The notes under the pieces are model-generated. The model saw only the letters and a program-made list of their open reading frames with translations. It searched no databases and was not told where the DNA came from. A program made the translations under genes and the position numbers. Positions 8,496 to 54,558 of a DNA stretch of 64,000 nt are shown here, in pieces. Origin of the DNA: Gammaproteobacteria bacterium (lineage in GTDB: Bacteria > Pseudomonadota > Gammaproteobacteria > GCA-001735895); assembly GCA_050306135.1 (NCBI GenBank), contig JBNLGQ010000029.1, positions 43,585 to 107,584 of the forward strand. Direction: 5' to 3'. Every line of letters begins with the position of its first letter. Position 1 is the first letter of the stretch.

Positions 8496-8516
8496 ATAAA
8501 CATTTTTATTATAAAT

Positions 8517-36900: not shown

Positions 36901-37359
36901 AACGAGTTAGAACATGCTGCTCTTAAAAAACAGTTATTCACAGGAACTAAAAAAGCAAAGTTGTGGTGGTCAGAACAACCCCATTGGTGTGGCGAAATGC
37001 AAAAACAACAACGCTTTCGTGAGTCAAAGAAGGATGAGGCTTTTTACCTGTATGTGGATGACGAGTACAAAGAACCTAACTGGCGTTGGCTTAACGAAAA
37101 TGCGCGACCCGCCAAGTTTGGTGAGGTATCGAGTATCAACATAAAAAAAGTACCGGAATTTGGTAAAGGATTAAACAGTGGCTTCTGGTTTGAGATGGAT
37201 ACAAAGTCGATTTATAGCCAGCTAGCAGATGATTTTGGTGTTGAGTTACCTGAGGTTAGCTGCCGTTACGGCGAAGTACGAATAGTTGAATATGAAAATA
37301 ATGATGCTGAATATCTTTGGCATGAAGCTTTAGGGTTATTTCAGGAGGTTAATATCTAA
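33982..37359 (+). CDS. cas3: Cas2-Cas3 fusion (Cas2 domain + HD nuclease + SF2 helicase), type I-F
   Basis: It has an N-terminal Cas2-like segment ('VSQCEKKALNRTRRVLDAFADRIGDNTWQT...AVSCHWIRSRSRSELIWVVG'), an HD motif ('LFHDFGKANKLFQ'), Walker A ('MASTGKGKTLANAKI') and DExD ('LVLDEPDDF'). It overlaps cas1 by 4 nt. Confidence 0.92.
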   Translation: MMVTFVSQCEKKALNRTRRVLDAFADRIGDNTWQTVITQEGLLAVKKLLRKTATKNTAVSCHWIRSRSRSELIWVVGNRSRFNEQGYVPVNLTDSHIEQFQDKVQWQMLPVIQYAASISGLFHDFGKANKLFQKKIDPHDKDSSIFEPYRHEWISLRLFQAFVGDKTDAEWLDELADINPDIVVACFRDGLEGGVDKENNPFLNLPAFARIVAWIILSHHRLPLSPSWQDNERPARFGEMQSWLEIDFDAVWNSYRCKDADQKERIEDNWHFADKSLPYFSQHWRAKACTTASEAKQNLSLWLNDSAKDWILDHLFVSHLARLSMMLADHHYSSRPRVTHKWRNPNYKVYANSDRFTKQLKQQLDEHLIGVSYNAERIVRKLSKLKDSLEKLGDNEFLSEPVSKENKDAFGWQDAAIEVVRKCAAETRGKGFFGINMASTGKGKTLANAKIMYALGENTGGVRFSVALGLRTLTLQTGREFRKELDLNEEQLALLVGGTAVKQLYENSQNQQQGKSDPEDMGSESGQEYLPDELKVNYSGTVTKHALSEWTRENPRMDNMLCAPVLVSTIDHLIPATEGVRGGKQIAPMLRLLTSDLVLDEPDDFGLEDLPALCRLVHWAGMLGSRVLLSTATMPPALAYALFQAYKAGWAQYAKANLADWNGEICCAWFDEFKRNARTTNVSQFKNSEAKGLAAKALFINAHKSFVSDRLAELSKNDIAKRQGEIIYPDAPLSPSQAIAKLCHKKIVELHHQHHVRREDGKTVSIGLIRMANINPLVAVAQKMLQMDAHPNTRIHYCVYHSRYPLALRSFIENRLDTVLSRKKVDEFWQREEITRPLSQYPDSNHHIFVVLASPVAEVGRDHDYDWAIVEPSSMRSIIQLAGRILRHRELEKPLKASNVLILNKNTKVLQNEQVCYYRPGFESIGLRLSPHELLDTKQFAQIDASPRIEEPDLNGIEVTEKGKSPYIKYSNLNELEHAALKKQLFTGTKKAKLWWSEQPHWCGEMQKQQRFRESKKDEAFYLYVDDEYKEPNWRWLNENARPAKFGEVSSINIKKVPEFGKGLNSGFWFEMDTKSIYSQLADDFGVELPEVSCRYGEVRIVEYENNDAEYLWHEALGLFQEVNI

Positions 37360-38894
37360 TGAGCACAGGAAAAACAATGCATGATGCAATCCAGCATTTT
37401 ATTTTAGAGCGGAAAGCGAAGAAAGAAGAAGCTCTCCTTGCAACTAAGCTTGAGAAAGATAAGGATGGCGGGCTAAACAAAATTTTAATTAAAACCATCA
37501 AGTCTACGAAAAAAACAACTAATGATGATTTAAACAGCATTGCAACCAGAAAAAAGTCCAAAGACGAGACTTCACTAAATTTTCATGCCCAAAAATATCA
37601 TGATCTAATCACCTTGGCTGAAGGCAATCAAATAGATCTAGCGGAGTACAAAGAGACATATTTATTACAAAAACAAAAGGTGGATGATTCTCATCAGTTT
37701 GCTACGTGGTTGGATGATAATTGTAGATATGCAGAAGGTGCTTCGGTTGCAACACATGTGTCTAAGCTAACCCATTCATCCAATAAAGCATCTTGTTTTT
37801 TTGATCAAATTCATGACAAAAAATCAGGGTATGTTACAACGTCAATGATAAGCAAGCCGGTTGTCGATGGAGCTTACGATAATGCCAAGTATTCTCCAGT
37901 CGTCTCCCTGCTATTAGTTGAAAATGAAGGGCGATTTTTTTACGAAGATATCATCGAAGGTAAATATGATGGATTGCTAGGTTTTGAGGAGAACGATGAC
38001 CAAATAAATACATGGAGAACCGAGCTAAAAAAGTCAATTGATAAACCAAGCAAAGCAACTGACGGGTTATCTAAGCAAGTCTATTTTCCTTTGAAAAAAA
38101 TCTCCGTAAATTCCAACGATTGGCATTTACTCTCCGTGCTTGTTTCCTCTTCGATGGCACATTCGATCTTCAATATGACTGCATCAAAAGTGTTCAACGA
38201 CCATAATAAGTCTTTGAGGGATAAATATAGAGCTAAGTCTCTATACAGCCCCGAGACACTGATCAGCCACCCGAAAACAGCCACATTGATGGTGACTCAA
38301 AGCTCTCATCAAAATACTTCCCAACTGAATGGTGCACGCAGTGGTAGATTGATATTGACTTCATCCCAGCCACCCACATGGCAACGCCAAGTAACCCCCC
38401 CAATCTATCAAAACTCATGGTTTCGCTACGGCATTCCATACAGCACTATAAAAGAAGATATTAAATACTTACGTGAATTTTTATTACGTAATGACAGGTT
38501 AGAGTTGAGTACTCGTGACCCGAAAAAACATAAGTGGCTGGAAAGTTGGGGAGAGCAAATTCTTGATGAGGTGATGTATCAGGCCAACATCATTCAAGAG
38601 CTACCAGCAGGCTGGTCGGCAGTGGAGGACATCAAGCTCAAAAAAGCACATCAATATTTTCTTGATCCCTACCGAGATGATGTAGGCTTTCAGGGAGAGC
38701 GAGAGGCCACTGATTGGGAACCGGAAGTCTGCGCTGATTTTTCGCGCTGGTTGAATAATCATCTGAAAGGAAAAGACAAGGCCTTTTCCCCGCAACCAGA
38801 GCATAGTAAATTGTGGAAAAGTCTAATGGCTGCGGCTCTACGTGAATTGAAAGATACACAAAAATTCTCCTTTGAGAAGGAGGTAAACGCATGA
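37359..38894 (+). CDS. csy1: Csy1 / Cas8f, large subunit of the type I-F Cascade
   Basis: Blocks are shared with P. aeruginosa Csy1: 'KQVYFPL', 'LTSSQPPTWQRQVTPPIYQNSWF' (compare 'LPSLPPNWQRQNV...SSVF'), and 'FSRWLNNHL'. At 511 aa it is about 75 aa longer at the N-terminus than the 434-aa reference. Its start overlaps the cas3 stop (TAATG). Confidence 0.85.
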   Translation: MSTGKTMHDAIQHFILERKAKKEEALLATKLEKDKDGGLNKILIKTIKSTKKTTNDDLNSIATRKKSKDETSLNFHAQKYHDLITLAEGNQIDLAEYKETYLLQKQKVDDSHQFATWLDDNCRYAEGASVATHVSKLTHSSNKASCFFDQIHDKKSGYVTTSMISKPVVDGAYDNAKYSPVVSLLLVENEGRFFYEDIIEGKYDGLLGFEENDDQINTWRTELKKSIDKPSKATDGLSKQVYFPLKKISVNSNDWHLLSVLVSSSMAHSIFNMTASKVFNDHNKSLRDKYRAKSLYSPETLISHPKTATLMVTQSSHQNTSQLNGARSGRLILTSSQPPTWQRQVTPPIYQNSWFRYGIPYSTIKEDIKYLREFLLRNDRLELSTRDPKKHKWLESWGEQILDEVMYQANIIQELPAGWSAVEDIKLKKAHQYFLDPYRDDVGFQGEREATDWEPEVCADFSRWLNNHLKGKDKAFSPQPEHSKLWKSLMAAALRELKDTQKFSFEKEVNA

Positions 38895-40108
38895 GCCAAT
38901 ACATCTTACTCAATCGTATTAGAGTGCAAAATGCCAATGCGATAGCAGGCTTTACCTGGGGGTTTCCTGCGATAACGCATTTTCTTGGCTTTACCCATAA
39001 CCTGTCACGCAAACTAAGCCGGTCTGACAACTATTCCGGTATCAGCCTGACTGGTTGTGCAGTGATTGCGCATGAGCATCATGTGCATACCTATGGTAAA
39101 TATGGTGATCGATTCACTCAGGTTAAATCTTCATATATCTCAACACCTAAATTTGAAAAAGGCGTAATGAAAACGCCATCAATTATCGAAGAAGCAAAAA
39201 TGAACATGACGGTCTCTCTACTCATCAAGGTGGTGGGACGAATGGGTAATGCGACCTGGGTCGAACAGTTTACTACTTGGATAGAAAAGCAAAGCCATAT
39301 CCAGCGTTTGGCAGGCGGTACGATTTTAGACATCGCCGACGTAAAACTGCTTGATACCCACGAAAGGCGAGATCGTTACCAGCTTAAAGGTAAATTGTTG
39401 CCGGGCTTTGTACTTATGGATCGATCCAGCAGTTTGAAAAGCCGCTATCAGGTGTTGCAGAAAGAAAACCCCAACGCCGAATTACTAGACGCATGGCTGG
39501 ATTTTTCTGCATTCAAACAACAGGCTCGCCCAAAATACGATCAGATTTCAAAGTATCTGGACAAAGGCATTAAACAGGATGCAGCGACCTATGCCAGCTT
39601 GCTACACGATTGGCAAAAACACCTTGAGCATGTGCCTTATCAACAAGACAGCATCCCTGATTCATTGAAAGAGCATTTTTCAACACTTGATGCTAAAAAA
39701 TACAAGGCCTTGTTAGCGCAGTGGCAGCAATATCTGGAACCTAATGAGAAAACACCAGCCGATTGGGAGCGACTACCAAAACCCGAAGCCAGAGGTTATT
39801 TAGTGCCGTTGATGGTGGGCTACAAAGCTATCACCCCCGTTTACGACAATGCTGAAATTGCTAATACCCGCGATAGCGAAACCCCCGTTTGCTTTGTCGA
39901 GGCAGTACACAGTATTGGTGAATGGAAAAGTGCCCACCGTTTGCGCACGGAGGCTGATTTTGCCGAGAGTATTTGGCGCTATGACGACTATCAGGAACAT
40001 TGGTATTTGTGCAAGCAAGATATAGCACTTGAGACAATGGATGAACCTAACGAAACAACCACTGAAGAAGCAGTGATTAGTACCGACGATGATTATGAAG
40101 ATGACTAA
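38891..40108 (+). CDS. csy2: Csy2 / Cas5f, with an internal insertion and a polyacidic C-terminal tail
   Basis: It matches Csy2 in 'RIRVQNANAIAGFTWGFPAITHFLGF', 'LLPGFVLMDR', 'GYLVPLMVGYKAITPVY', and 'NTRDSETPVCFVEAVHSIGEWKSAHRL'. It is about 405 aa against about 327 in PA14 and ends in 'TTEEAVISTDDDYEDD'. Confidence 0.85.
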   Translation: MSQYILLNRIRVQNANAIAGFTWGFPAITHFLGFTHNLSRKLSRSDNYSGISLTGCAVIAHEHHVHTYGKYGDRFTQVKSSYISTPKFEKGVMKTPSIIEEAKMNMTVSLLIKVVGRMGNATWVEQFTTWIEKQSHIQRLAGGTILDIADVKLLDTHERRDRYQLKGKLLPGFVLMDRSSSLKSRYQVLQKENPNAELLDAWLDFSAFKQQARPKYDQISKYLDKGIKQDAATYASLLHDWQKHLEHVPYQQDSIPDSLKEHFSTLDAKKYKALLAQWQQYLEPNEKTPADWERLPKPEARGYLVPLMVGYKAITPVYDNAEIANTRDSETPVCFVEAVHSIGEWKSAHRLRTEADFAESIWRYDDYQEHWYLCKQDIALETMDEPNETTTEEAVISTDDDYEDD

Positions 40109-40117
40109 GGAGAAAGA

Positions 40118-41111
40118 AATGACGACCAAAGCGAAAGAAATTGACCTACCCAGTATGTTGGCATTTGAGCGAAAGCTGGAAGTGTCTGATGGACTGATGT
40201 TTGCTGGTAATTGGAGCGACCTTGCCGAAGAAAATGCTTGGGAGGCTATTAAGGTTGTGCCGCGTAAAAACCGCTCAACGCAAAGTGCTGCTGGCATTAA
40301 GGATGAGGAAAAATCTAAGCCAAACCCTGTTTCGGCAGATAATGATGATGCAAACCTGCCATATGACAAAGATACTCTAAAAGTCAGTTTCACTCTGCGT
40401 ATGATTGGGGATTTGGGCACTCCGTTCGGCTGCAATGACCCTGAATTCGAGAAAGCAATTCACAGCAAGGTAACTGAGTTTAAAGAACAAGGATTGAAAG
40501 AACTGGCACACCGCTATGCACAGAATATTGCCAGCGGGCGTTTCTTATGGCGTAACCGCATCTGTGCTGAAGAATTGCTGATTCAGGTCAGAATTAATCA
40601 TGGTGAGGATCTCATCGAACTTAATGGTTACGACTTCGCGTTAAATGATTTTGCGGCTAGCCGTCAAGACAACAAATTAGTCCAACTAACAGAGGCTATT
40701 TACCAAGGCTTGGTGGGTACACAAGATTTTGTTTTGCTGGAGGTTGATGCCTTTGTTCGCCTGGGCGCTGGTCAGCATGTGTTTCCATCGCAAGAAATGA
40801 ACATGGGCGATAAGAAAAAAGTGCTTTTCAAACTGGGAAAAGATAATAACCAGGCCGCTATGCATAGTGTGAAGTTAGGGAATGCTATTCGCACTATTGA
40901 TGATTGGTATCGCGAGAATGCTGAATTTCCGATTGCGGTAGAGCCCTATGGCTCAGTTACTCAGCGTGGCGAAGCCTACAGAAAAAGCAAAACAGACTTG
41001 TACACATTAATGTTGGACTGGGTGAATGATAAGCCTGTTGCAGACGAACAAAAATGCTATGTGTTAGCAAACCTGATACGTGGTGGCGTTTTTGGTGGAA
41101 AAAGTGAATAG
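40118..41111 (+). CDS. csy3: Csy3 / Cas7f, Cascade backbone subunit
   Basis: It is near-collinear with PA14 Csy3: 'LAFERKLEVSDGLMFAGNW', 'TLKVSFTLRMIGDLGTPFGCNDPEF', 'LAHRYAQNIASGRFLWRNR', 'VLLEVDAFVRLGAGQHVFPSQEM', 'IAVEPYGSVTQRGEAYR', and 'ANLIRGGVFGG'. The start is set at ATG 40118 behind an AGGAGA RBS. Confidence 0.9.
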
Positions 41112-41119
41112 GATCTAAG

Positions 41120-41671
41120 ATGAATCACTATTTCGAAATCAAAATACTACCCGACCCGGAGATACTGGACACAGTTCTGATGAACGCGGTTTACACCAAA
41201 CTCCACAAAGCCTTATGTGATCTGAACTCGACCGGTATTGGCGTTAGCTTTCCCAATAGGCAGAAGACTCTTGGCAATACGGTGCGATTACATGGTTCTG
41301 ATAAAGACCTGGATGACTTAATGAGGCTGAATTGGACAGGGGGTATGAGTGGATACTGCTCTATCAGTGATATCTTACCAGTACCTGATAATTCTAAGTT
41401 CCGCACCGTGTCGCGCAAGCAAACCACGATGAGTCAATCTAAGCTCAATCGGTTGTTAAAGCGTGGCTCCATCACTGAGGATGAGGTTAAAAATTACAAA
41501 GCGAAAATGTTTACCAAAGGTCTGGATAATCCTTATCTGGAATTACAAAGTGGTTCAAATGGACATAGACACCGTCGCTATATCGAATTTGGTGAGTTGT
41601 TAAACGAACCCGTCAGCGGCCAGTTTGACCAGTTCGGCCTATCCAAAACTGCGACTATCCCCTGGTTTTAA
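41120..41671 (+). CDS. csy4: Csy4 / Cas6f, pre-crRNA endoribonuclease
   Basis: 183 aa. 'MNHYFEIKILPDPE' parallels PA14 'MDHYLDIRLRPDPE'. 'IGVSFP' and the C-terminal 'YGLSKTATIPWF' (compare 'YGLSKGGFVPWF') are present. Confidence 0.9.
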   Translation: MNHYFEIKILPDPEILDTVLMNAVYTKLHKALCDLNSTGIGVSFPNRQKTLGNTVRLHGSDKDLDDLMRLNWTGGMSGYCSISDILPVPDNSKFRTVSRKQTTMSQSKLNRLLKRGSITEDEVKNYKAKMFTKGLDNPYLELQSGSNGHRHRRYIEFGELLNEPVSGQFDQFGLSKTATIPWF

Positions 41672-41985
41672 CTTACAGTAGCCAGATTGTAGCCACCTGC
41701 CTCAATCTGGCTTAATCCTCTATCTGAGAGGTATAACATGGCTAAGGCAACCTCACCGATCCGATTACAGCAGGGGCTCATGCAGCAGACAGAATCAACA
41801 ACACGGCTTTTCATCGAAATATTCCGAGAAGATTGAATGTTGGACTAACTTTTTACCAAAGTTTTTATCGTTCTTTAACAATCATTAAAAATCAATCACT
41901 TACAGGGGATGTGTTTTTCATTGGTAAAACAGTAGAAATCCCCTTAAGTGTTTGTTGTGCAATGGATAAATATCAATTATCTTCA
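41672..41985 (+). promoter_or_regulatory. CRISPR leader (AT-rich, about 314 bp) between csy4 and the first repeat
   Basis: This AT-rich non-coding stretch lies directly 5' of repeat 1. The degenerate terminal repeat is at the far end of the array, so this side is the leader-proximal end. Confidence 0.7.
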
Positions 41986-44653
41986 GTTCACTGCCGCACA
42001 GGCAGCTTAGAAAGGTGCCTTGGGCACGAGCAATCAATTTTGAGAGTTCACTGCCGCACAGGCAGCTTAGAAATGCCTCCAGCACCTTTTTATATTTATC
42101 ACCGAGTTCACTGCCGCACAGGCAGCTTAGAAAATAATATACTTTTGCTATATGAAGTTTCGGAGTTCACTGCCGCACAGGCAGCTTAGAAATTCGAGCT
42201 TAACGGTGTCACCCGCGTCGGCCAGTTCACTGCCGCACAGGCAGCTTAGAAATGGTTACGGTACCGCTCCGACATCACACGGACCGTTCACTGCCGCACA
42301 GGCAGCTTAGAAATATGCAAGTGCAACCTCGTTTACTGTTGTAGGGTTCACTGCCGCACAGGCAGCTTAGAAATATCGAATAAATAACCGCTATCTGGCG
42401 GAATTGTTCACTGCCGCACAGGCAGCTTAGAAAAAGCTATGGACACAGGGCAGAGGATTTTCCTCGTTCACTGCCGCACAGGCAGCTTAGAAAATTAACT
42501 ATAAACTCATGAGATGGCATGCAGGGTTCACTGCCGCACAGGCAGCTTAGAAATCGTGTTGCCTACGTATAGCCGCCATAACTTCGTTCACTGCCGCACA
42601 GGCAGCTTAGAAAATCGGCGTAGTCGATTGCTCGCTGTATCGGCCGTTCACTGCCGCACAGGCAGCTTAGAAAATTGGATGGCATCGCGTCATTTGAGTC
42701 TACAGGTTCACTGCCGCACAGGCAGCTTAGAAAAGTCAATGAAGCAGGGGTTGGTATAGCGATTGGTTCACTGCCGCACAGGCAGCTTAGAAACGGATGC
42801 GCATTCATTGAAAACAGCCCAATGCGTTCACTGCCGCACAGGCAGCTTAGAAATTTACTCATCTAATGAAAGAGCTGGGCGAATTGTTCACTGCCGCACA
42901 GGCAGCTTAGAAATCCTAATACTGATTGGCAGCTTGCGGCAACTAGTTCACTGCCGCACAGGCAGCTTAGAAAACCCACAGATACCATCTGTACGTGGAG
43001 TCATTGTTCACTGCCGCACAGGCAGCTTAGAAAACAGTAACCTCACATCAGAAATTCTGCAAACCGTTCACTGCCGCACAGGCAGCTTAGAAATGAACAC
43101 GCGACATTTGAGGATGGCGGGAATGGTTCACTGCCGCACAGGCAGCTTAGAAATTCTTCAATCGCATCGAGTACTGCGGTTACAGGTTCACTGCCGCACA
43201 GGCAGCTTAGAAATACAAAATGGAATACTTCATATATGACAACTGGTTCACTGCCGCACAGGCAGCTTAGAAAATTACCAGCAAAGACAGACTGCAGCTG
43301 ATTACGTTCACTGCCGCACAGGCAGCTTAGAAATGCTATAAAGGCAGCGTGGTGTTTTCAGTCGGGTTCACTGCCGCACAGGCAGCTTAGAAAATTGTCA
43401 ACGCCATGCAGCCAGCGTACCCACGGTTCACTGCCGCACAGGCAGCTTAGAAATCAATAGCCATTAGCTCCTTACGACGCATAATGTTCACTGCCGCACA
43501 GGCAGCTTAGAAATTGTTAGAGTCCCCGATAAACCGACTATACATGTTCACTGCCGCACAGGCAGCTTAGAAAATCAACTAGAGTATCTGCATCAGGTAA
43601 TTCTGGTTCACTGCCGCACAGGCAGCTTAGAAACCTACTGGACGCGATCATCACCAGCGAGTAACGTTCACTGCCGCACAGGCAGCTTAGAAACAGCAGA
43701 TCCAGCGTCAGATCGTTGTTATCGCGTTCACTGCCGCACAGGCAGCTTAGAAAACCTTCAGCATTTGCTGATAGCGACCCGACATGTTCACTGCCGCACA
43801 GGCAGCTTAGAAACAGTGGATTGCCGGTAGTACCGCACTCAACCCGTTCACTGCCGCACAGGCAGCTTAGAAATGTGTGTTCTGCACGCATTCAGAAAGA
43901 AAGAAGTTCACTGCCGCACAGGCAGCTTAGAAAATGTACCTAGTTCATCTAAAACTAAAAGCCCAGTTCACTGCCGCACAGGCAGCTTAGAAAAGCTCAG
44001 GACCCGCGACATCAGTGGGTACCGGGTTCACTGCCGCACAGGCAGCTTAGAAAAATTCAGATAAATGGTACTGTACGCGAATCGAGTTCACTGCCGCACA
44101 GGCAGCTTAGAAATCTGAAACAACATCTCTAGCATGTGTACCACCGTTCACTGCCGTACAGGCAGCTTAGAAACAAATTCCGTAATTAGTAGCAGAATTT
44201 TTAGCGTTCACTGCCGCACAGGCAGCTTAGAAAGTTAAGGTCTTTTGGCCAGGTCATCAGAAACAGTTCACTGCCGCACAGGCAGCTTAGAAATAGTAGA
44301 ATTAACTAGCTATATCATCGATAAAGTTCACTGCCGCACAGGCAGCTTAGAAAATTGATTCGCACAGCTCAAGGAATGTAATTACGTTCACTGCCGCACA
44401 GGCAGCTTAGAAATAGATAGGTTCGAGTCGCCGCGGACGCCCCTTGTTCACTGCCGCACAGGCAGCTTAGAAAAGTTTTTGATTGCACTCTGGCAAAACT
44501 TTTTAGTTCACTGCCGCACAGGCAGCTTAGAAAAAGTCGATTCAACTTTAGCAGTAGAACCATGCGTTCACTGCCGCACAGGCAGCTTAGAAAACAGTAC
44601 AATTTAAAACCAGTAGCCAGATTATGTTAACTGCCGCACAGGCAGCTTAAAAC
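41986..44653 (+). CRISPR. Type I-F CRISPR array: 45 copies of the 28-bp repeat GTTCACTGCCGCACAGGCAGCTTAGAAA with 44 spacers of 31-33 nt
   Basis: The repeats were counted directly: 60-nt periodicity from 41986 through 44626. The repeat has the I-F (Yersinia-type) stem 'CTGCCGCACAGGCAG'. One internal repeat carries a SNP (44146-44173, 'CTGCCGTACAGGCAG'). The last repeat (44626-44653) is degenerate: 'GTTAACTGCCGCACAGGCAGCTTAAAAC'. Confidence 0.97.
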
Positions 44654-45024
44654 CGGATATGGGTAAATCATTATGCATACATCGAATGGCCGGCAAGTGA
44701 GCGACTCATCTGCGACAGCATACCTGTCTGTTATATTGCTTGATAGCAGCTGTTATAGGATCCTTTCAAGGCGCCATATTGTTGAGTTGGCTATCACAAT
44801 TCAGGTGAAATTTTCTGAAGACGTTATTCATCTAACTGATCTGAATATCAATCCCAAAATCGATGGCTGCGAGAAATTGATTTTGTGAGAAAAGAAAAAA
44901 CACATTTTTTGTTTTTTGTGCACTGAGAATTCAGGGATGAATTATTCAGGTCTCTCCCAAATAAACCATTTTTATCAAACTGTCATAATCCCCCTATAAG
45001 CTTGAATCGTTTAAATTAATTAGT

Positions 45025-46782
45025 GTGAAAGGCATGATCAATGTCGAGGCAATGCTGGATAATTTTTTACCGGACTTTAGAAACAAAAAGAAACGTCTGT
45101 ATAAAACAACAGTAGCTGTATTAAAAAAGATCCTGCATCAGGATGAAATCAATCAGTTTATTGACAGCCATAAACACCTTGAAGGCGTGGAGTTTCTGGA
45201 TGCGGTGCTGGACCATTTTGATTTTAAATATAGTCTGTCCAATCGCGACCGCGCTAATATCCCCGCACAGGGGCGTGTCATTATTGTGGCGAATCATCCA
45301 TTAGGTTCTCTGGATGGGCTGGCTTTATTGAAAATGGTTTCCGAGATCCGTCCTGATGTGAAAATTGTGGCGACTACCGTGCTGAGTCAGGTTAAACCGC
45401 TGGAGAATCTGTTTCTTAGCGTGGATAACCTGTCGAGTAAAGCGAGCCATATTGCCAGCCTGAAAAAGATTCTGGCTGCCTTGCAGCAGGAACAGGCGGT
45501 GATTATGTTTCCTACGGGAGAGGTTTCCCGCATTCGTCCACAGGGTGTGCGTGATGGCAAGTGGAAAACGGGCTTTGTCAGCATGGCTTACAAATCTAAC
45601 TCACCAGTGGTTCCTGTTTTCATTAATGGGAAGAATTCTACGCTGTTTTATAGCATGTCTACTCTGTATAAACCATTGGGTACCCTGATGCTGGTGATGG
45701 AGATGTTTAATAAGCAGGATCAGGAAATATCTTTTCGCGTGGGTAAACCAATTCCTGTTAATTCAATGAAGTTGCTGGATCTGCCACCTAAAAAAGTTGC
45801 AAAGCGGATGCGTAAGCAGGTTTATCGTTTGGCAAAAAATTTTAAGAAGCCACTATTCGAAACCATTGAAAATATTGTGCATCCGGTTAATCGTAAAAAT
45901 ATCCGCGATGAGCTTAAGCAATCTGAGTTTCTGGGTGCCACTCAGGATGGTATGGAAATCTATTTATTTGACTACCGATCAAATTCCAGTGTGATCCGTG
46001 AAATAGGAAGGTTAAGAGAGCTGTCGTTTCGACAGGTGCATGAAGGTACAGGCAAATCTATCGATGTTGATGAGTTTGATCGTTACTATCGCCATCTGGT
46101 GTTATGGGATGACAAGCAACTGGAGATCGTTGGCACTTATCGTATTGGTGAAGGTGCGCGTATCCTGGCGCAACATGGCATACAGGGGTTTTATACCAAT
46201 ACACTGTTTGAGTTACAGGGCTGTATGGTGGGTTATCTTGAAAAATCAATTGAACTGGGGCGTAGTTTTATCCAGCCACGTTACTGGGGTAAGCGTAGTT
46301 TGGATTACCTTTGGTATGGTATAGGTGCTTATCTTCAGAAACACCCGCAGGTTGAATATATGATTGGTCCTGTCACCTTGAGTGCTTCCTACCCTGAACA
46401 GGCGAAGCATGAAATTGTAAACTTCTATCAGCAATTATTTGGCAATAGCGATAATCTGGTTAAACCCAGACTGCCATATGATTACCCGGTTAGCAGTGAC
46501 TATGCTGAGTATCAGCAGGTATCTCAGGAATCAGATTATAAGCAGGCTTATTCACGTTTGAAAGTGAAGCTGGATGAGTTAGGGGTCAGAGTACCGACCC
46601 TGTTCAAACAGTATGTTGAGCTATGTAAGCCGGGTGGTTGTGAATTTCTGGGATTCAATGTGGATCCGGAATTTTCAAACTGTATAGATGCGATGATACT
46701 GGTACATATTGATGCGGTTTATGAAAAGAAGCGAGATCGTTATATCAATGTACATAATGTTAAAGTTGAGCAAGCTGCTTAG
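45025..46782 (+). CDS. Bifunctional acyltransferase: N-terminal PlsC-type (HX4D) domain fused to a C-terminal OlsB/GNAT-like N-acyltransferase domain. It is OlsF-like and a candidate ornithine/amino-lipid synthase.
   Basis: 585 aa with an 'VIIVANHPLGSLDG' HX4D motif and a 'FPTGE' block typical of lysophospholipid acyltransferases. The roughly 280-aa C-terminal half is of the hemolysin/OlsB-like acyltransferase type ('GTYRIGEGARIL'). This architecture matches the published OlsF of Serratia and Flavobacterium as I recall it. Confidence 0.5.
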   Translation: MKGMINVEAMLDNFLPDFRNKKKRLYKTTVAVLKKILHQDEINQFIDSHKHLEGVEFLDAVLDHFDFKYSLSNRDRANIPAQGRVIIVANHPLGSLDGLALLKMVSEIRPDVKIVATTVLSQVKPLENLFLSVDNLSSKASHIASLKKILAALQQEQAVIMFPTGEVSRIRPQGVRDGKWKTGFVSMAYKSNSPVVPVFINGKNSTLFYSMSTLYKPLGTLMLVMEMFNKQDQEISFRVGKPIPVNSMKLLDLPPKKVAKRMRKQVYRLAKNFKKPLFETIENIVHPVNRKNIRDELKQSEFLGATQDGMEIYLFDYRSNSSVIREIGRLRELSFRQVHEGTGKSIDVDEFDRYYRHLVLWDDKQLEIVGTYRIGEGARILAQHGIQGFYTNTLFELQGCMVGYLEKSIELGRSFIQPRYWGKRSLDYLWYGIGAYLQKHPQVEYMIGPVTLSASYPEQAKHEIVNFYQQLFGNSDNLVKPRLPYDYPVSSDYAEYQQVSQESDYKQAYSRLKVKLDELGVRVPTLFKQYVELCKPGGCEFLGFNVDPEFSNCIDAMILVHIDAVYEKKRDRYINVHNVKVEQAA

Positions 46783-47270: not shown

Positions 47271-47972
47271 ATGAAAAAAAGAATAACTAGTACTGTAGGT
47301 GTATTCACTGTTTTAACATTGATCACGATAAATGCTTATGCGGCCCCTTTTCGTCTACTGGGTGAAGTGGCCGATACCGGTGCTGCAAGCGCTGGCAGTG
47401 AGTCTGCTATTTATAACTATGATACCAATGCTGATATGCACTCTGGCACTTACAGCAGTTGGTCTTATACAGGATTCGACTGGAACTCAAGCTATTCAAC
47501 TGCAGGATTGGCATACGATGGCAAATACCGCCTAATAGGTGAAGTGGCCAACACTGGTGCTGCAAGCGCAGGTAATGAATCTGCTATTTATACCTATGAT
47601 TCCTACGCGGATATGCAGTCGGGCAATTACAGCAGCTGGTCTTATACAGGATTTGACTGGATTTCAAGTTATTCAACCGCGGGATTGGCATATGATGGCA
47701 AATACCGTCTGTTAGGTGAAGTAGCCGATACCGGTACTGCAAGCGCAGGTAGTGAATCTGCTATTTATACCTATGATACGTTCGATGATATGCTGTCTGG
47801 AACTTATAGTAGCTGGTCCTATACAGGGTTCGACTGGATTTCAAGTTATTCAACCGCGGGATTGGCATACGAATCTATACCAACATCTGAAGTACCAGAA
47901 CCAACGAGCCTTTTACTTATGGGGCTAGGGTTAGTAGGACTAGGATTTGCTCGTAAAAAACGAATCGTATAG
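47271..47972 (+). CDS. Secreted PEP-CTERM protein with three tandem repeats of about 59 aa
   Basis: It has a signal peptide. It then has three near-identical units ('RLLGEVADTGAASAGSESAIYTYD...SGTYSSWSYTGFDWISSYSTAGLAYDGKY'). The C-terminal sorting signal is 'VPEPTSLLLMGLGLVGLGFARKKR' (PEP + TM + basic). Confidence 0.75.
   Translation: MKKRITSTVGVFTVLTLITINAYAAPFRLLGEVADTGAASAGSESAIYNYDTNADMHSGTYSSWSYTGFDWNSSYSTAGLAYDGKYRLIGEVANTGAASAGNESAIYTYDSYADMQSGNYSSWSYTGFDWISSYSTAGLAYDGKYRLLGEVADTGTASAGSESAIYTYDTFDDMLSGTYSSWSYTGFDWISSYSTAGLAYESIPTSEVPEPTSLLLMGLGLVGLGFARKKRIV
47346..47880 (+). repeat. Three tandem direct repeats of about 177 bp inside the PEP-CTERM gene
   Basis: The DNA-level periodicity corresponds to the three protein repeats. 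There are only a few substitutions between copies. Confidence 0.8.
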
Positions 47973-48231: not shown

Positions 48232-48852
48232 TCATTTTGTTGTCAGGCTTTCATCATACCAGTCACTCATATCATCAATCATTTCACCCTTAATCAGGTA
48301 ATAAGGTGCTTTATGGTAAATATAGAAATCATGGAATGGATCGGTCAATATTTTGCTAAACCATACCAGACCCGATTGAATGCCCATGATGAAGAACAGA
48401 TGAACAGTTCTAAAGATTAATGCACCAGCGCCTATAAAAAGCCACAGCACTGAGGTGTTATAAATAAACTCATTCAGCGAGGTGTGAGGCTGTAGTAGAC
48501 CGAAAAAGTCAGGGTTGAAATACAGTACAAGAGGGGCGGCTACCCATACTGATAACAGTACAACCTTTCTACGTAGATTATAACCCACCTTAATACTTTC
48601 CTTGTATGCCTGACTGGCATCGTTGATCTCGTCGTACTCCAACGGTTCAAAGAAAAAATGTCCGCTTTGACGTAATACCATGGCCAGTAACCAACCGATC
48701 ATTACGGCTGCCACGGGATTGATAAAGATCAGTACGTAACTGGCCATAAAGCAGATACAGCTCAAAAAGTGTAAAAACTGATTGATTCGGTTCTGGTGAT
48801 AGTAACGATGATCATCCCAGCGTTGCTGACGTAGTTCCTGCATAAAAGTCAT
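48232..48852 (-). CDS. DUF962 / Mpo1-like integral membrane protein, last gene of the lipid operon
   Basis: 206 aa with four TM helices. It has an N-terminal 'YYHQNRINQFLH' (HxxN-type) segment and a 'GHFFFEP' motif, resembling the Mpo1/YGL010w family as I recall it. Confidence 0.45.
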   Translation of the reverse strand: MTFMQELRQQRWDDHRYYHQNRINQFLHFLSCICFMASYVLIFINPVAAVMIGWLLAMVLRQSGHFFFEPLEYDEINDASQAYKESIKVGYNLRRKVVLLSVWVAAPLVLYFNPDFFGLLQPHTSLNEFIYNTSVLWLFIGAGALIFRTVHLFFIMGIQSGLVWFSKILTDPFHDFYIYHKAPYYLIKGEMIDDMSDWYDESLTTK

Positions 48853-48894
48853 AATGATTACCTCTGTTTAATAGTTTATTAAGTGATGAAGTTT

Positions 48895-49773
48895 TTATTC
48901 TGAAATCGATGGCCTTTTTCTGAGTAGCGCCTGCCCCATCAGGATGGGAGTGTCGGTCTGTATATGGTCGAGTAACTGATAGTTAGATGAAGCAAATACA
49001 ATGATGGTTGAGCCATGCTGAAAGTAGCCCATTTCTTCGCCTTTACGATAACTTGCATTGCAGTTTAAATGGTTAGGGCCCTGGTATTTCAAATCCAGTG
49101 TTTCATTCAGGCAGTGGAATTTCATACTCGCCACCAGAATAGCGGCAACCGGCACCATTACCATGCAGTCATCTTGTTTACCCGTATGTAGTTCGATGAC
49201 TGCACGCTCATTTTTGCAATACAGCTTTTCAATGCGTTTAAGTGCTATGGGATTTACGTTCCAGGTGTCGCCGGAGATGTAGGTAATATCCGATACCGAA
49301 CAATCCTGCGGGGCATGGAATCGGTGGTACATGCTGGATTTCAGGCGCAGGGTGACAAAGATGCCATTACTGAGTTTTTTACAAAGACTGGTATCAGGTA
49401 TTAAGTCACTCAGTTCATAGGGGTAGCCCTTGGCCTGAAATAATGACTGGCCTTCAATATTTCCGCAGGCACCAACAATTGCATCACAGGGGCTGGTAAT
49501 AATGTCTTTATTTATATCCACAGGACGACTGCCTGGCTTTAACTGGCGTATAAAACAATCATGCAGGCTGCTGAAGTGTTGCTGTTGTGCTTCATTCAGA
49601 TTTAAATCGCTAGCAAATAGCTTCCATACGGCAATGGAAAAGCGTGTTAGCCATGGATTTTTAAGCTTGCTATACCAGCCCATAAACTGCGTTAGCAGAC
49701 GACGCGGAATACGATTTGTCAGCAGGAAGTTCAGCTGTTCCTGTTGAGTTAAGTGGCGGATTAATGATGTCAT
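48895..49773 (-). CDS. psd: Phosphatidylserine decarboxylase proenzyme
   Basis: It matches E. coli Psd in 'LFQAKGYPYEL', 'YHRFHAP', 'NERAV', and the self-cleavage site 'GYFQHGSTIIVF' (the G-S-T pyruvoyl-forming motif). Confidence 0.8.
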   Translation of the reverse strand: MTSLIRHLTQQEQLNFLLTNRIPRRLLTQFMGWYSKLKNPWLTRFSIAVWKLFASDLNLNEAQQQHFSSLHDCFIRQLKPGSRPVDINKDIITSPCDAIVGACGNIEGQSLFQAKGYPYELSDLIPDTSLCKKLSNGIFVTLRLKSSMYHRFHAPQDCSVSDITYISGDTWNVNPIALKRIEKLYCKNERAVIELHTGKQDDCMVMVPVAAILVASMKFHCLNETLDLKYQGPNHLNCNASYRKGEEMGYFQHGSTIIVFASSNYQLLDHIQTDTPILMGQALLRKRPSISE

Positions 49774-49787
49774 CGTGTGACAGATGC

Positions 49788-52508
49788 TCAGGCAACAGAA
49801 CGCGTTGCAAGTGGTTCCAGCACTATTGCTGACTCTTCACCCAGGCCCATATCTTCAGCAAACTGTTGCATGATCGGTTCTGCCTGATAATCTTCGCTGC
49901 GTAACCTGGCATTACCTTTCATTTTATAGCGCAGATCTGCATCGCTAAAATATTTGATGATGAGTTCAGCCATGTCATGCATATCCTCTGCGAGGAATCC
50001 GCTGACTCCATGCTGGATGATATTTTTCGGTCCTTTGCAATTATAGGAAACTACCGGCATACCATTAACAAAGGATTCCAGGATGACGTTACCAAAGGTG
50101 TCAAAGCGTGATGGGAAGACTTTAAGATCCAGTCCAGCATAAAGCTGGGACATGCGAGTTTTGTCAACCCAGCCCAGATACAGGGCTTCAGGGAATAGCT
50201 TTTTCAGTTCTTCTTCAGCTGGCCCAGATCCAGCAATGACCATGCGCACATCGGGTATGGCATTTTTTACCATGCGGTAAATTTTGGGTAATTCAAAGAT
50301 GCCTTTTTCCTTGCTGATACGGCTGGCAAATAGCATGACCTGAGTGTCTTCAGTTGCATCTTCAAATAGTGTGGCTTTGTCTACAGGTATTATAGAGACA
50401 TCCCTTGCCTGAGTATGATGCGCAGTTAGTAATACCTTATCCTCGTCCAGTTGCATCTGGTGACCGGTAAGCCAGTCTCTATGGTCATCATTAAGTACAA
50501 ATACACCAGCGAACTGTTGATAGAAGAAACGCAATATTCTGCGTAGCCGATCAATTTCATGCTGATTTAAGTCGGTTGTGTTATGGATGAAATCGAGCCA
50601 GTCGGTATGCATGAAAAAGTAGGCAGGCACATTAAACATATGTTTGATGAATAAGGCTGCAAATGCCATGGGCCCTTCGGTGGAGCAGACAATGCGATCA
50701 TAGCCACCTGCATAAAAGATGCGTGCAATCTCCATAAAATCCGGGATGCGTATCTCCTGTTCGCCGAATTCAGAGAGTGTCAAACTGGTTAAGGGACGTA
50801 TCACATGTAAATGTGGTGCTGCTTCGGCATCAGCGTGGCAGATGAGAAAATCGATGGGTAGATCAGCCTGCTGTATATGTTTCAATTTACCCGATAAGGA
50901 ACTGGATACACCATTTTTATCCAGCAAGGTGTCCGTAAGATAGAGCGCCCGCCTGGGGTGATGGCTGGTACCAATATGGTCGGCAAACTCATTCAGGAAG
51001 CGTCTGTTCTGATACAGTAAACGGGTACTAGCCAGCGTTGTCCCTAGTAGTATCACGCCTACTAAAAAAGGAAACGATAAATTATCCAGTAGCGAAGAAA
51101 AGTTGTAACAACTCATCCCCGGTTTATTGCTTTTACCCCCAAAGATTAACTCTGTGAGCTGGCTGGGTACTTCAAACTTGCGTGTCAGCTCTTCGCTGGA
51201 AAATGATTTCAACTTGTATTCGCTGGTACTACTGGATGTGGTTTTCAGGCGCTTTATAACCAACAGGTTGAGTCCTTTAAAAAGTGCTGGTATCGCTTCG
51301 TTAACGGTCTGGATGAAAACTTCAGTAGATTTGTTTCTACTATCTGCAATGTTTTCCAGATGTTGAATACAGAAGCGATAATCTTTTTTGATTTTCCATT
51401 TAACCAGTTTATTGGGTTTTTTACCCTGTAGGGCATCGTGGATAAACTTGAAGAACTTCTGTGTGTTTTTATGTTTCTGCATCTCCAGTAACAGATTACT
51501 GATAAGGAAACAGGCCAGTTTGTCGGACACTTCACCACGATGAAACATAATGCGCAATAAGCCGGGGTCCTGGATATGCGTAGCAACCTGAGAGAAGTAA
51601 TCCAGCAGAGCGATATTCAGTTTCTGGTTTTCAGCAACAAGGCCATAGGGAGCAATATTGCCTTTGCGAATGGCTTCCAATGCCAGTGTCGAAGCCGTAT
51701 CGGTTTTTAATCGCTGCTTGAGATTTGGGATATATAGATAACTGCCAGATTGACCGGCAAACATACCCATATGATCATCTGAGCCACCGCTTAGTACTTT
51801 TGCCTGATCTGGGTCCACACCAAATTCAGCTGGGTTAAGATTATGCTTGCGTCCGTATGCGCGTATTTTTTCTGCGCTCAGGCTTTTAATCCATTTCAGG
51901 GTTAGTACCGATTGCCATTGATCTCGTTGGCCGTTGACGACTTCAAAACGTTGAAACATAACCGCCAGTTTTTCGAACAGGGAGAGATTGATTTTGTCAT
52001 TACGTGTATAAAAATACAGTGGATGCGGCAGAATAACGGGAATGTCACATTTATGTGCATAACGCAGAAACTGATAGATGTTGTCACGTTTATGATTGAG
52101 CTCCTTTTCCTGATGACGATTAAAACCATAGGCCAGCACATGTACGAATAAATCATATTCAGGAAAGTGGCAGGTAAACTCAGCGGCAGTTAAAACATCT
52201 TCACCCTGATCCTGTAATTCCCAGCAGGAATTCGCATTATTATGATTGGTGATGGTAATGACATCACAGTGACTTTGTTTAAGTTGTTTGACCAGCTTTT
52301 TGGTTTTCAGCCAGGTTTCGGGCAGGCCAAGAATGCGACCCCATAGCTCATCGGGTACATCGCTGTTTTTATCATGGCAGTGCAGGTCAATCTTAAGGCA
52401 GTCTTCGCGTTTGAAGCGGTTGGATTCGTTGAGTAGATAAGCATTGAACTCACGGGTTAAGGAATTTCTAAATTCACTTACTGATTCGTTTGATGTAGGT
52501 AATATCAT
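49788..52508 (-). CDS. Fusion protein: N-terminal PHP-family metal-dependent phosphoesterase domain, a central TM segment, and a C-terminal GT4 (GT-B) glycosyltransferase domain
   Basis: The PHP motifs appear in order: 'IDLHCHD' (HxH), 'ITNHNN', 'EF..HFPEYD', 'VHVLAYG', 'LPHP', and 'GGSDDHMG' (DxH). There is a TM helix 'FPFLVGVILLGTTLA'. The C-terminal GT4 domain has 'VMLFASRISKEKG', 'VRMVIAGSGPAEEEL', and 'FGNVILESFVNGMPVVS' (E-X7-E region). Confidence 0.65.
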   Translation of the reverse strand: MILPTSNESVSEFRNSLTREFNAYLLNESNRFKREDCLKIDLHCHDKNSDVPDELWGRILGLPETWLKTKKLVKQLKQSHCDVITITNHNNANSCWELQDQGEDVLTAAEFTCHFPEYDLFVHVLAYGFNRHQEKELNHKRDNIYQFLRYAHKCDIPVILPHPLYFYTRNDKINLSLFEKLAVMFQRFEVVNGQRDQWQSVLTLKWIKSLSAEKIRAYGRKHNLNPAEFGVDPDQAKVLSGGSDDHMGMFAGQSGSYLYIPNLKQRLKTDTASTLALEAIRKGNIAPYGLVAENQKLNIALLDYFSQVATHIQDPGLLRIMFHRGEVSDKLACFLISNLLLEMQKHKNTQKFFKFIHDALQGKKPNKLVKWKIKKDYRFCIQHLENIADSRNKSTEVFIQTVNEAIPALFKGLNLLVIKRLKTTSSSTSEYKLKSFSSEELTRKFEVPSQLTELIFGGKSNKPGMSCYNFSSLLDNLSFPFLVGVILLGTTLASTRLLYQNRRFLNEFADHIGTSHHPRRALYLTDTLLDKNGVSSSLSGKLKHIQQADLPIDFLICHADAEAAPHLHVIRPLTSLTLSEFGEQEIRIPDFMEIARIFYAGGYDRIVCSTEGPMAFAALFIKHMFNVPAYFFMHTDWLDFIHNTTDLNQHEIDRLRRILRFFYQQFAGVFVLNDDHRDWLTGHQMQLDEDKVLLTAHHTQARDVSIIPVDKATLFEDATEDTQVMLFASRISKEKGIFELPKIYRMVKNAIPDVRMVIAGSGPAEEELKKLFPEALYLGWVDKTRMSQLYAGLDLKVFPSRFDTFGNVILESFVNGMPVVSYNCKGPKNIIQHGVSGFLAEDMHDMAELIIKYFSDADLRYKMKGNARLRSEDYQAEPIMQQFAEDMGLGEESAIVLEPLATRSVA

Positions 52509-54229
52509 AGCTCGCTAACCTCTTCGGCTTTGGGCAGGCCTGTGTAGCCAGTTTTCGGTTTTATCCATCTGGAAAGCACGGGAAAGCGAGCAGCAATCAT
52601 TTCTTTCAACATTATTCGCTTGATGGCTTTATTACTCAGATTGGGGTTATGCCACCACCAACCATCATTTTTCATCTGCCTGGCAGCAGCAATAAATAAA
52701 TCAACTACCTTCAGAAAATCTTCATCGCTGAAATTATGGCTCATGATGATTCGGCCACTACCAACCCAGCTGAGACTCAGTCCCTGCGCTTTCAGATAGA
52801 ACTGAAACATCCAGTTATAACGCGATGGCTGGGTATACAGAATGGTCCAGATAGACATGAGGTTGGCAATTCTAACGGGCAGGCCTTCGTCATGCAGACG
52901 CTTGTTGAGCAGGCTGACGCGCGCGTTCCATAGCTCATCGGCATGTTGATAATTGTTTTGATACTCAGGCTGCTGAATGCGCGTTAAGAACTGATGCATG
53001 CAGGCCATCACATAAGGATGTGAATTAAAGGTTCCGCGTGCGAAAGAGATATCTACAGGCTGTTCAGGTTTATAGCGTTTCATCAATGCATGACTGCCAC
53101 AGACCACACCTACAGGCAGTCCGCCACCCAAGGTTTTGCCGTAGGTAACTATGTCTGCCTGTATGCCAAAATACTCCTGAGCACCACGATAACCCAGACG
53201 AAAACCGGTAAACACTTCATCAAAGATTAAAACGATAGCTCGTTCGATACAGACTTCACTGACCTGCTTTAACCACCGACTATAGGCTTTTCGATCAAAG
53301 TGAGCGCTACGGTCGCTGTTAACCAATGAAGCATCGCTGGAAGCATCGGCGTTAGGATGTAAACCCTGTAAGGGATTGATCAGTACACAGGCGATATCAT
53401 TACGTGTACGTAACACCTTTAATGTTGTGTCGCTCATATCCTGTAGTGTGTATACATCATGGCTGGCACGCTGGTTACCTATGCCTGGTTGTACACCATC
53501 CCACCAGCCGTGGTAGGCGCCGCATAAACGAACCAGATGCGTTTTTCCCGTGTGGTAACGTGCCAGACGAACCGCCTGCATCACAGCCTCGGTGCCGGAC
53601 ATGTGAAAAGATACTTCATCCAGGCCGGATATCTTTTTTAAGCGCTCAACATTGCTTTTAATAATGGGGTGATAGGCCCCAAGTACTGGACCCATATCTT
53701 TCACCATTTCCATGCCGTCCTGCATGCACTGTTTGTAAAAATCATAACCAAACACGTTGACCCCGTAAGAGCCAGTCAGGTCATAGCTCCAGTTACCATC
53801 CAGGTCTTTAACCTTGACACCTTTTGATTCCTTCACGGCATTGGGCAGGGTTAATTGGGTAGCGAGGTATTTTCTATAAGGAAAGGGAACTCGATACTGG
53901 TTGGTGAATTCAACATCTGAAATACTGTCCTGCACTGAGTGATTGAATTCAATGCCTTTGAGCATGTGTTGATTAAAATGCTTTTTGAGTCTGTTCAGGG
54001 CCTGACGGCGTTGCTGAGTAATATTCTGCGGGGCAGCATCGCTACAGAAGAAATTAACTTCATTGTATTCAAAGTAGGGGATGAGCCTTGCAACACGGCG
54101 TGACATTTTTGAATGTCCGCGTAGCGATGGATGTTTGGCGCGTGAAAGGCGTAAGCGAATCCATAGTCTATAGGATAGATACAATGCAATAAACAGGATG
54201 AAAATATTTTGTAGTGTAATCTCGGGCAT
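52505..54229 (-). CDS. Membrane-anchored class-III (GSA-aminomutase-like) PLP-dependent aminotransferase, first gene of the lipid operon
   Basis: 574 aa. The N-terminal TM helix is 'IFILFIALYLSYRLWI', followed by an extension of about 100 aa. The class-III core has 'FDEVFTGFR' and the PLP-lysine motif 'YGKTLGGGLPVGVV'. It overlaps the downstream gene by 4 nt. Confidence 0.7.
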   Translation of the reverse strand: MPEITLQNIFILFIALYLSYRLWIRLRLSRAKHPSLRGHSKMSRRVARLIPYFEYNEVNFFCSDAAPQNITQQRRQALNRLKKHFNQHMLKGIEFNHSVQDSISDVEFTNQYRVPFPYRKYLATQLTLPNAVKESKGVKVKDLDGNWSYDLTGSYGVNVFGYDFYKQCMQDGMEMVKDMGPVLGAYHPIIKSNVERLKKISGLDEVSFHMSGTEAVMQAVRLARYHTGKTHLVRLCGAYHGWWDGVQPGIGNQRASHDVYTLQDMSDTTLKVLRTRNDIACVLINPLQGLHPNADASSDASLVNSDRSAHFDRKAYSRWLKQVSEVCIERAIVLIFDEVFTGFRLGYRGAQEYFGIQADIVTYGKTLGGGLPVGVVCGSHALMKRYKPEQPVDISFARGTFNSHPYVMACMHQFLTRIQQPEYQNNYQHADELWNARVSLLNKRLHDEGLPVRIANLMSIWTILYTQPSRYNWMFQFYLKAQGLSLSWVGSGRIIMSHNFSDEDFLKVVDLFIAAARQMKNDGWWWHNPNLSNKAIKRIMLKEMIAARFPVLSRWIKPKTGYTGLPKAEEVSEL

Positions 54230-54315
54230 GCTCGCGGACCGGAATATAATTTGCGAGACGCTAACATGTGAAAATGACAGTCTGGTTTCAATGTTGAAGT
54301 TTCGGTATTTTTAAT

Positions 54316-54397: not shown

Positions 54398-54558
54398 TCC
54401 TGTTTTTTTCGTTCCCATGCTCTGAGATGGAATGCGTATGAACTGGCGTGGCAATGTGACTTTTCTTTTAGATTCTGTAACAAAAATTTAATAATTCCAT
54501 AACATTTTCGACATATTTAAAGGCTAAAGTGTGCCGCATTAAATTTTCGAGAAGTGTA

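Follow-up and report, generated by a model that had tools for sequence, protein, structure and literature searches.

The stretch of DNA analysed here, called the window below, comprises 64,000 nucleotides of contig JBNLGQ010000029.1 (positions 43,585 to 107,584, forward strand) from the gammaproteobacterial assembly GCA_050306135.1. Between a CRISPR (clustered regularly interspaced short palindromic repeats) array on one side and genes for phosphonate utilization on the other, it carries a gene for a protein with two acyltransferase domains, which we designate olsF after the bifunctional ornithine lipid synthase OlsF. In the list of open reading frames (ORFs) the gene begins at a GTG codon, and the in-frame ATG at 45034 was taken as the probable start because both the database homologues and the OlsF model begin at the equivalent Met. 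The gene, its domains and its conserved motifs are arranged as follows.

45025-46782, plus strand: olsF ORF as listed, with the in-frame GTG at 45025 as an alternative start
45034-46782, plus strand: olsF coding sequence from ATG 45034, 582 amino acids (aa) plus stop
45097-45834, plus strand: N-terminal O-acyltransferase domain (residues 22-267), PF19576 type, with a PlsC/GPAT-like fold
45292-45318, plus strand: catalytic motif NHPLGSLDG, H-X5-D (H88, D94), residues 87-95, invariant in a 14-sequence alignment
45508-45531, plus strand: acyltransferase block III, FPTGEVSR, residues 159-166, with FP.GEVSR invariant in the same alignment
45871-46749, plus strand: C-terminal N-acyltransferase domain, residues 280-572
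46012-46314, plus strand: PF13444 (Acetyltransf_5) core of the C-terminal domain, residues 327-427 (Pfam, E 1e-25)

A preliminary description of this DNA had proposed the fusion of a PlsC-type O-acyltransferase domain carrying an HX4D motif with an OlsB-like N-acyltransferase domain, the architecture of OlsF. The fusion itself was borne out, since a Pfam acyltransferase domain and PF13444 lie in one and the same ORF. The account of the N-terminal domain was wrong in two details. Five residues separate His and Asp in NHPLGSLDG, so that the motif is HX5D and not HX4D, and the domain matched PF19576 (Acyltransf_2; residues 22-267, E 7e-34, 117 bits) with a higher score than PF01553 (residues 72-197, E 7e-13, 49 bits). 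HX5D is the motif of the OlsF N-domain, SqdA and SalA, whereas PlsC and OlsA have HX4D (bioRxiv 10.1101/2022.08.18.504050); likewise, the N-domains of OlsF and GlsA have been placed in PF19576, and OlsA and PlsC in PF01553 (PMC11631085). Both corrections therefore strengthen the assignment to OlsF. Block III corresponds to the published FPXGXX substrate-binding block (bioRxiv 10.1101/2022.08.18.504050). In the alignment of 14 sequences, taken from the window, Enterobacter, Nitrosomonas, Thiomicrospira, Hydrogenovibrio and metagenome-assembled genome (MAG) groups, NHPxGxLDGxALL and FP(T/A)GEVSR were invariant throughout, as were the C-domain blocks EIGRLRE, ELGRSF, LDYLW and KQY..LC. No transmembrane segment was predicted in the olsF product.

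Against the curated NCBIfam models, the olsF product gave 804.9 bits with the equivalog NF052615 (bifunctional ornithine lipid synthase OlsF; cut-off 620), and the alignment ran from end to end, residues 1-572 of the protein on positions 1-570 of the 570-position model. Lower scores, all below the respective cut-offs, were obtained with the models for GlsB (201 bits, cut-off 300), GlsA (196 bits, cut-off 260), OlsB (two models, about 60 bits, cut-offs 320-350) and the PlsC domain (TIGR00530, 42.6 bits, cut-off 102.95), the relationship of the C-domain to OlsB being distant (NCBIfam, E about 1e-16). For calibration, five other family members were scored on NF052615 and ranged from 768 to 829 bits: the Enterobacter protein of the hemB-olsF-tauD locus (793), a Nitrosomonas protein (796), a Thiomicrospira protein (829), a Hydrogenovibrio protein (816) and a divergent MAG protein from locus L012 (768). 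The window protein stands mid-range among these. Its identity over the full length was 43.8% to an Aeromonas protein and 41.6% to an Enterobacter protein; it was about 30-31% to the fused proteins of Vibrio chromosome 2 and Flavobacterium, the latter aligning by tblastn over residues 29-559 of the window protein. An identical protein with an identical upstream region is present in the MAG assembly GCA_050297215.1. The two-domain fusion, the PF19576-type domain with its HX5D motif, the OlsB/GlsB-like C-domain and a score above the equivalog threshold together support the OlsF identity proposed beforehand. As judged from its sequence, the olsF product is a further member of the known OlsF family, homologues of which have already been noted in Nitrosomonadales and many gammaproteobacterial orders (2026 review, PMC12971839).

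The fold of the protein is in agreement with this assignment. No solved structure detectable by sequence was found for the olsF product, and an AlphaFold2 model was built from 58 homologues with a mean predicted local distance difference test score (pLDDT) of 81. Among PDB entries, Foldseek matched this model best to T. maritima PlsC (5kym, E 5e-7) and next to squash GPAT and PatA, the folds that the N-domain resembles. The C-domain was closest to the synthases of acyl-homoserine lactones and N-acyl amino acids, LasI, TofI and FeeM, and a review of aminolipids groups LasI, EsaI and FeeM with the OlsB-type N-acyltransferases (PMC11631085). The OlsB-like character of the C-domain, as originally claimed, thus stands because this half of the protein is not nearer to protein acetyltransferases.

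Two elements of a putative promoter were detected immediately upstream of olsF.

44969-44986, plus strand: Pho-box-like direct repeat TTTTTAT-CAAA-CTGTCAT, 48-65 nt upstream of the ATG, within a conserved block
44997-45002, plus strand: -10-like hexamer TAAGCT, 10 nt after the box, with TAnnnT kept in 5 of 5 clade orthologues

The upstream region was compared between the window and four orthologues of the same clade, at the loci L001, L002, L010 and L011. Conservation was limited to the last ~75 nt before the olsF ATG, the sequence farther upstream being unrelated, and the conserved block reads TTTATCAAACTGTCATAAT-N-TAAGCT. Of the two Pho-box half-sites, one is perfect and the other has 4 of 7 matches. 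Within the 64 kb of the window there are two copies of the composite CTGTCAT-N10-TANNNT, where 0.15 would be expected, and 0 of 100 shuffles reached this number. Both copies are located at promoters, one at olsF and one at the head of a minus-strand gene cassette described below. The geometry of box and -10 hexamer matches what we take to be the layout of the E. coli pstS promoter.

Pho-box-like elements were also found at the same position in other genera. In 729 kb of loci, GTCATN5TGTCAY was detected six times (shuffle mean 0.9), and five of the six sites lie on the coding strand 52-67 nt upstream of an olsF ATG, at three Nitrosomonas-like loci and those of Thiomicrospira and Hydrogenovibrio. 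The same pattern, written as the box xxGTCAT-N4-xTGTCAY, occupies the position of the window box in L003-L005, L007 and L009, and one-mismatch variants do so in four further olsF orthologues. The layout of the window is repeated upstream of olsF in Enterobacter (TCTTCAC-CAAA-CTGCAAT) and Klebsiella (ACTTCAC-CCAA-CTGTAAT). Upstream regions of 160 nt gave counts of TGT[CA]A that were for the most part not significant, and the only informative Pho signals in these sequences are the composite of box and -10 hexamer and the positional conservation across genera. A scan with the sigma-70 consensus indicated no plus-strand promoter upstream of olsF, which fits an activator-dependent promoter but proves nothing. 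A promoter belonging to olsF itself would lie about 30-65 nt before the ATG, with the Pho-box-like repeat in place of a -35 element, so that activation of olsF transcription by PhoB under phosphate limitation appears most likely. A pho box precedes olsF of Serratia as well, and VC0489 of V. cholerae depends on PhoBR (PMC12971839). Pho control of olsF is likely also for the window, and the link to phosphate limitation drawn in the preliminary description gains support from the positionally conserved element and from the neighbouring phn genes, from which we infer it.

From these lines of evidence, we consider it probable that olsF encodes an OlsF-type bifunctional aminolipid synthase making ornithine lipid, and that PhoB most likely switches the gene on when phosphate is limiting. 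The enzyme would be soluble or peripheral. The chemistry of OlsF consists of two steps, N-acylation followed by O-acylation of the 3-hydroxyl (PMC12971839). In the first, the C-domain would N-acylate ornithine with a 3-hydroxy fatty acid to yield lyso-ornithine lipid; in the second, the N-domain, with H88, D94 and block III, would esterify a second fatty acid onto the 3-hydroxyl to yield ornithine lipid, a membrane lipid that would be free of phosphorus. In this scheme, ornithine as the head group, the identity of the acyl donors and the control by PhoB are assumed after the characterised members of the family and the genomic context.

The neighbourhood of olsF includes the following genes and features.

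33026-41671: cas1f-cas3f-csy1-4 genes, a complete type I-F system (cas1f, cas3f, csy1-3, cas6f)
41986-44653, plus strand: type I-F CRISPR array of 45 repeats, the last of which, on the olsF side, is degenerate
47271-47972, plus strand: gene for a PEP-CTERM protein (PF07589, E 3e-8), directly downstream of olsF
48232-54229, minus strand: four-gene cassette, also found in L001, L010, L045, L046 and L047
54559-63707, plus strand: operon for phosphonate uptake and carbon-phosphorus (C-P) lyase, phnCDE-GHIJKLM plus a DUF1045 gene (NCBIfam/Pfam equivalogs)

Downstream of olsF the order is thus PEP-CTERM gene, minus-strand cassette and phn operon. The phn genes mentioned in the preliminary description proved, by NCBIfam and Pfam, to form a complete phnCDE-GHIJKLM set with the DUF1045 gene at its end and without phnF; the alignment favours the conserved ATG at 54559 over the GTG at 54529 as the start of phnC. 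Operons of this kind are classic members of the Pho regulon. Upstream of phnC (54400-54560, plus strand) there is a conserved block, CTGTAACA.AA..TTAAT..TTCCATAA, that is common to L002 and L010 and contains degenerate half-sites phased at 11 bp. This block probably represents the Pho box of phn. Like olsF, the phn operon would respond to the phosphate signal, and so, probably, would the four-gene cassette.

The arrangement varies among close relatives. At L002 (92% protein identity), the order is purU, one further gene, olsF and, directly after it, phnC, and neither CRISPR-Cas nor a PEP-CTERM gene nor the cassette was found in this olsF neighbourhood. At L001 (95-96% protein identity) the cassette directly follows olsF, and at L010 (86-87% protein identity) the phn genes lie upstream in inverted orientation and the cassette downstream of olsF. 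The linkage of olsF, phn and cassette is a feature of this clade, since phn and the cassette are both missing within 10 kb of olsF in the more distant relatives, those of the Nitrosomonas-like and Thiomicrospira groups.

With respect to the CRISPR array, its adjacency to olsF, as given in the preliminary description, is correct in position, the degenerate last repeat ending at 44653, 380 nt before the olsF ATG. A functional meaning of this adjacency was rejected, because L002 has the order purU...olsF-phnC without cas genes or array. In L002 the interval from purU to olsF lacks the whole type I-F locus (33026-44653) along with MauG-like, Irr-like and LysR genes; the CRISPR-Cas locus is a recent gain or loss, by insertion or deletion, in this lineage. 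A single identical CRISPR repeat is located 6.3 kb upstream of olsF in L011. A linkage of the PEP-CTERM gene to olsF was rejected likewise, as this neighbour is not syntenic in L001 or L002 and the adjacency looks incidental.

The four-gene cassette and its promoter element are composed as follows.

48232-48852, minus strand: DUF962/Mpo1-like membrane protein of 206 aa, apparently polytopic, with several hydrophobic stretches
48895-49773, minus strand: pyruvoyl protein resembling phosphatidylserine decarboxylase (PSD), with the HGST self-processing motif kept; passes TIGR00163
49788-52508, minus strand: 906-aa protein in which an unknown domain is fused to a GT4 glycosyltransferase
52505-54229, minus strand: class III aminotransferase, apparently anchored in the membrane by a hydrophobic stretch at its N terminus
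54258-54280, minus strand: cassette promoter element CTGTCAT-N10-TAGCGT, 29-51 nt upstream of the aminotransferase gene, with the geometry of the olsF promoter

The promoter element is conserved between the window and L010 and is present in L001 too. In the distant genome at L046, four phased TGTCA-type half-sites precede the cassette. As a unit, the cassette recurs across gammaproteobacteria, and in Aliikangiella maris and another assembly its surroundings are unrelated. The 906-aa protein has numerous homologues of about 900 aa, which share at least 63% identity and are named only 'glycosyltransferase'. No Pfam family was found in its N-terminal 520 aa. This region (residues 1-520) contains the invariant residues D41, H43, H45, D46, H89, E110, H123, H162, D244 and H246, a set of His and acidic residues that suggests a PHP-like metal hydrolase. 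A PHP fold was confirmed neither by Pfam, which gave PHP for 1 of 12 homologues (E 0.018) and YhiY for 5 of 12, nor by a PDB profile search, nor by hhalign against YcdX.

The preliminary description had referred to an adjacent lipid operon. This corresponds to the minus-strand cassette, a label that reads more into the neighbours than their sequences say; a lipid role of the four gene products is plausible, and so is one in membrane lipids under phosphate control. It is conceivable, and in our opinion rather doubtful, that olsF and the cassette are two modules of one 'phosphorus-sparing membrane island' that PhoB controls in this lineage. Should the cassette produce a new glyco- or aminolipid free of phosphorus, for instance by removal of a head group and subsequent glycosylation, it would represent a new pathway of lipid remodelling. 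Our search of the literature on the cassette, or on ornithine lipids in Nitrosomonas, returned nothing relevant. Being widespread, linked to olsF and phn in this clade and apparently Pho-regulated, the cassette is a reasonable target for lipidomics.

Several points weigh against an ornithine lipid synthase under PhoB control, and they concern the chemistry as well as the regulation. The head group cannot be read from the olsF sequence because F. johnsoniae OlsF forms lysine lipid in addition to ornithine lipid (PMC12971839) and relatives of OlsB and OlsF produce glycine or glutamine lipids (PMC12971839, PMC11631085). The nearest named homologues, the Nitrosomonas proteins, are themselves uncharacterised. 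The enzyme might thus carry out the same two acylations on a head group other than ornithine, such as lysine, glycine, serine-glycine, glutamine or another, and its C-domain gives a strong match of 201 bits to GlsB, the glycine enzyme thought to derive from the OlsF C-domain, while OlsB relatives make glutamine lipid (PMC12971839, PMC11631085). We regard this as unlikely, since the matches to GlsB and GlsA remain below the curated cut-offs whereas the OlsF equivalog is well above its own, the window protein scores like the enterobacterial type on NF052615, and the proteobacterial OlsFs that have been tested, those of Serratia and VC0489 and VCA0646 of V. cholerae, make ornithine lipid (PMC12971839, PMC12186959). 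The V. cholerae enzymes are functional though only 30-33% identical to the Serratia enzyme (PMC12186959). Aminolipids accumulate under phosphate limitation also in K. pneumoniae and E. cloacae, which are without olsBA. A generic PlsC-like lysophospholipid acyltransferase acting on glycerophospholipids, or a 'putative hemolysin' toxin, is highly improbable. Homologues do carry the annotations 'lysophospholipid acyltransferase family protein', 'GNAT family N-acyltransferase' and 'putative hemolysin', and weak matches to PF01553 and to the AGP acyltransferase model were obtained; these database names are generic automatic labels, however, and the full-length specific equivalog accounts for both domains, while TIGR00530 stays far below its cut-off, the motif is HX5D and PF19576 outscores PF01553. 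Scarcely credible is an N-acyl amino acid synthase associated with PEP-CTERM. The gene of a PEP-CTERM protein lies 490 nt downstream of olsF, FeeM is among the best structural matches of the olsF product, and a connection between N-acyl amino acid synthases and PEP-CTERM systems is reported in a review that refers to Craig et al. (2011, via PMC11631085). Synthases of this group are, however, single-domain proteins, whereas the window protein has an O-acyltransferase domain and matches OlsF end to end; no exosortase-associated acyltransferase model was among the NCBIfam families matched at E <= 1, and the PEP-CTERM gene was not found beside olsF in either L001 or L002.

As to the regulation of olsF, the gene could be expressed constitutively or under a different stress, for example low salinity, pH or temperature, in which case the conserved upstream block would be a common promoter or would bind some other regulator. 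This affects the regulatory part only, and we hold it to be somewhat unlikely. It accords with the degenerate upstream half-site of the box (TTTTTAT) and with the fact that the clade-invariant part is TTTATCA rather than TGTCA. Moreover, neither the generic E. coli Pho-box CTGTCATN4CTGTCAT at up to 3 mismatches (6 sites against 6.5 expected) nor CTGTCAT alone (9 against 9.55) is enriched in the window, and the linkage of olsF and phn is confined to the close clade. VCA0646 illustrates that OlsF paralogues can answer to salinity instead of phosphate (PMC12971839, PMC12186959). In favour of Pho control, however, position and layout of the box are those of the clear Pho boxes of nine orthologues in other genera and of enterobacteria, and the geometry of box and -10 hexamer was found at just two promoters in the window. 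Ornithine lipid synthesis by an OlsF enzyme, with Pho control as the likely mode of regulation, thus remains the reading that we prefer.

The olsF gene extends the OlsF family to an uncultured gammaproteobacterial lineage, with Nitrosomonas as the closest named relatives, and is a data point rather than a new concept. It predicts that phospholipids would be replaced by ornithine lipid under phosphate stress in this lineage. In several genera of beta- and gammaproteobacteria the Pho box keeps its position at olsF, a finding that favours phosphate control as the ancestral mode of regulation in the family.

Two other features of the window were noted. Positions 6000-10000 are low in G+C content (GC; 0.32-0.34 against about 0.44 elsewhere) and may be foreign DNA; the ORFs at 6486-8495 (669 aa) and 8517-9701 (394 aa) in this stretch gave no NCBIfam or PADLOC match. 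At 15963-20267 on the plus strand, a 1434-aa helicase matched the PADLOC DpdJ model with 1666 bits and also the BrxH and SngC models. It may be a stand-alone Lhr-type helicase, because the scanned ORFs nearby included no further dpd genes and no BREX genes.

Comparison with known systems places the window protein at different distances from its relatives. SqdA and SalA share the HX5D motif and the type of N-domain (bioRxiv 10.1101/2022.08.18.504050); unlike the window protein, they are single-domain enzymes without an N-acyltransferase and acylate sulfoquinovosyl glycerol or a sulfur-containing aminolipid. Alpha-proteobacterial tblastn matches cover only residues about 20-270 of the window protein and are probably of the SqdA/SalA kind. 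OlsB and OlsA of Sinorhizobium meliloti have the two-step chemistry and the product predicted for the window protein, and the C-domain is distantly related to OlsB, but they are two separate enzymes, and OlsA is a PF01553 HX4D enzyme described as unrelated to the OlsF N-domain (bioRxiv 10.1101/2022.08.18.504050, PMC11631085). GlsB and GlsA of Bacteroides also are two separate proteins, with glycine as the head group, and the window protein is below the cut-offs of both. At the Bacteroidota loci L016, L022, L025, L026, L030 and L040, the two OlsF halves are not in one continuous frame and appear to be two adjacent glsA/glsB-like genes instead of a fusion; 'full-length' tblastn matches there are therefore not to be read as OlsF fusions unchecked. 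F. johnsoniae OlsF (Fjoh_0833) is a fused two-domain enzyme like the window protein and differs in forming lysine lipid too (PMC12971839), the identity to the Flavobacterium fused protein being about 31%. VC0489 (phosphate-induced) and VCA0646 (low-salt-induced) of V. cholerae have the family, the architecture and the lack of a transmembrane anchor in common with the window protein (PMC12186959), which is about 30% identical to homologues of the Vibrio chromosome-2 type, and the dependence of VC0489 on PhoBR agrees with the regulation predicted for the window gene (PMC12971839). For OlsF of Serratia proteamaculans (Spro_2569) and its enterobacterial orthologues, the identity is only about 42%, as measured on an Enterobacter protein and not on that of Serratia, and the gene context is hemB-olsF-tauD as against CRISPR, phn and cassette in the window. 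These enzymes nevertheless have the same arrangement of an N-terminal HX5D/PF19576 domain and a C-terminal OlsB-like domain, score above the cut-off of NF052615, and are preceded by a Pho-box-like element with the same succession of half-site, CAAA and CTGyAAT.

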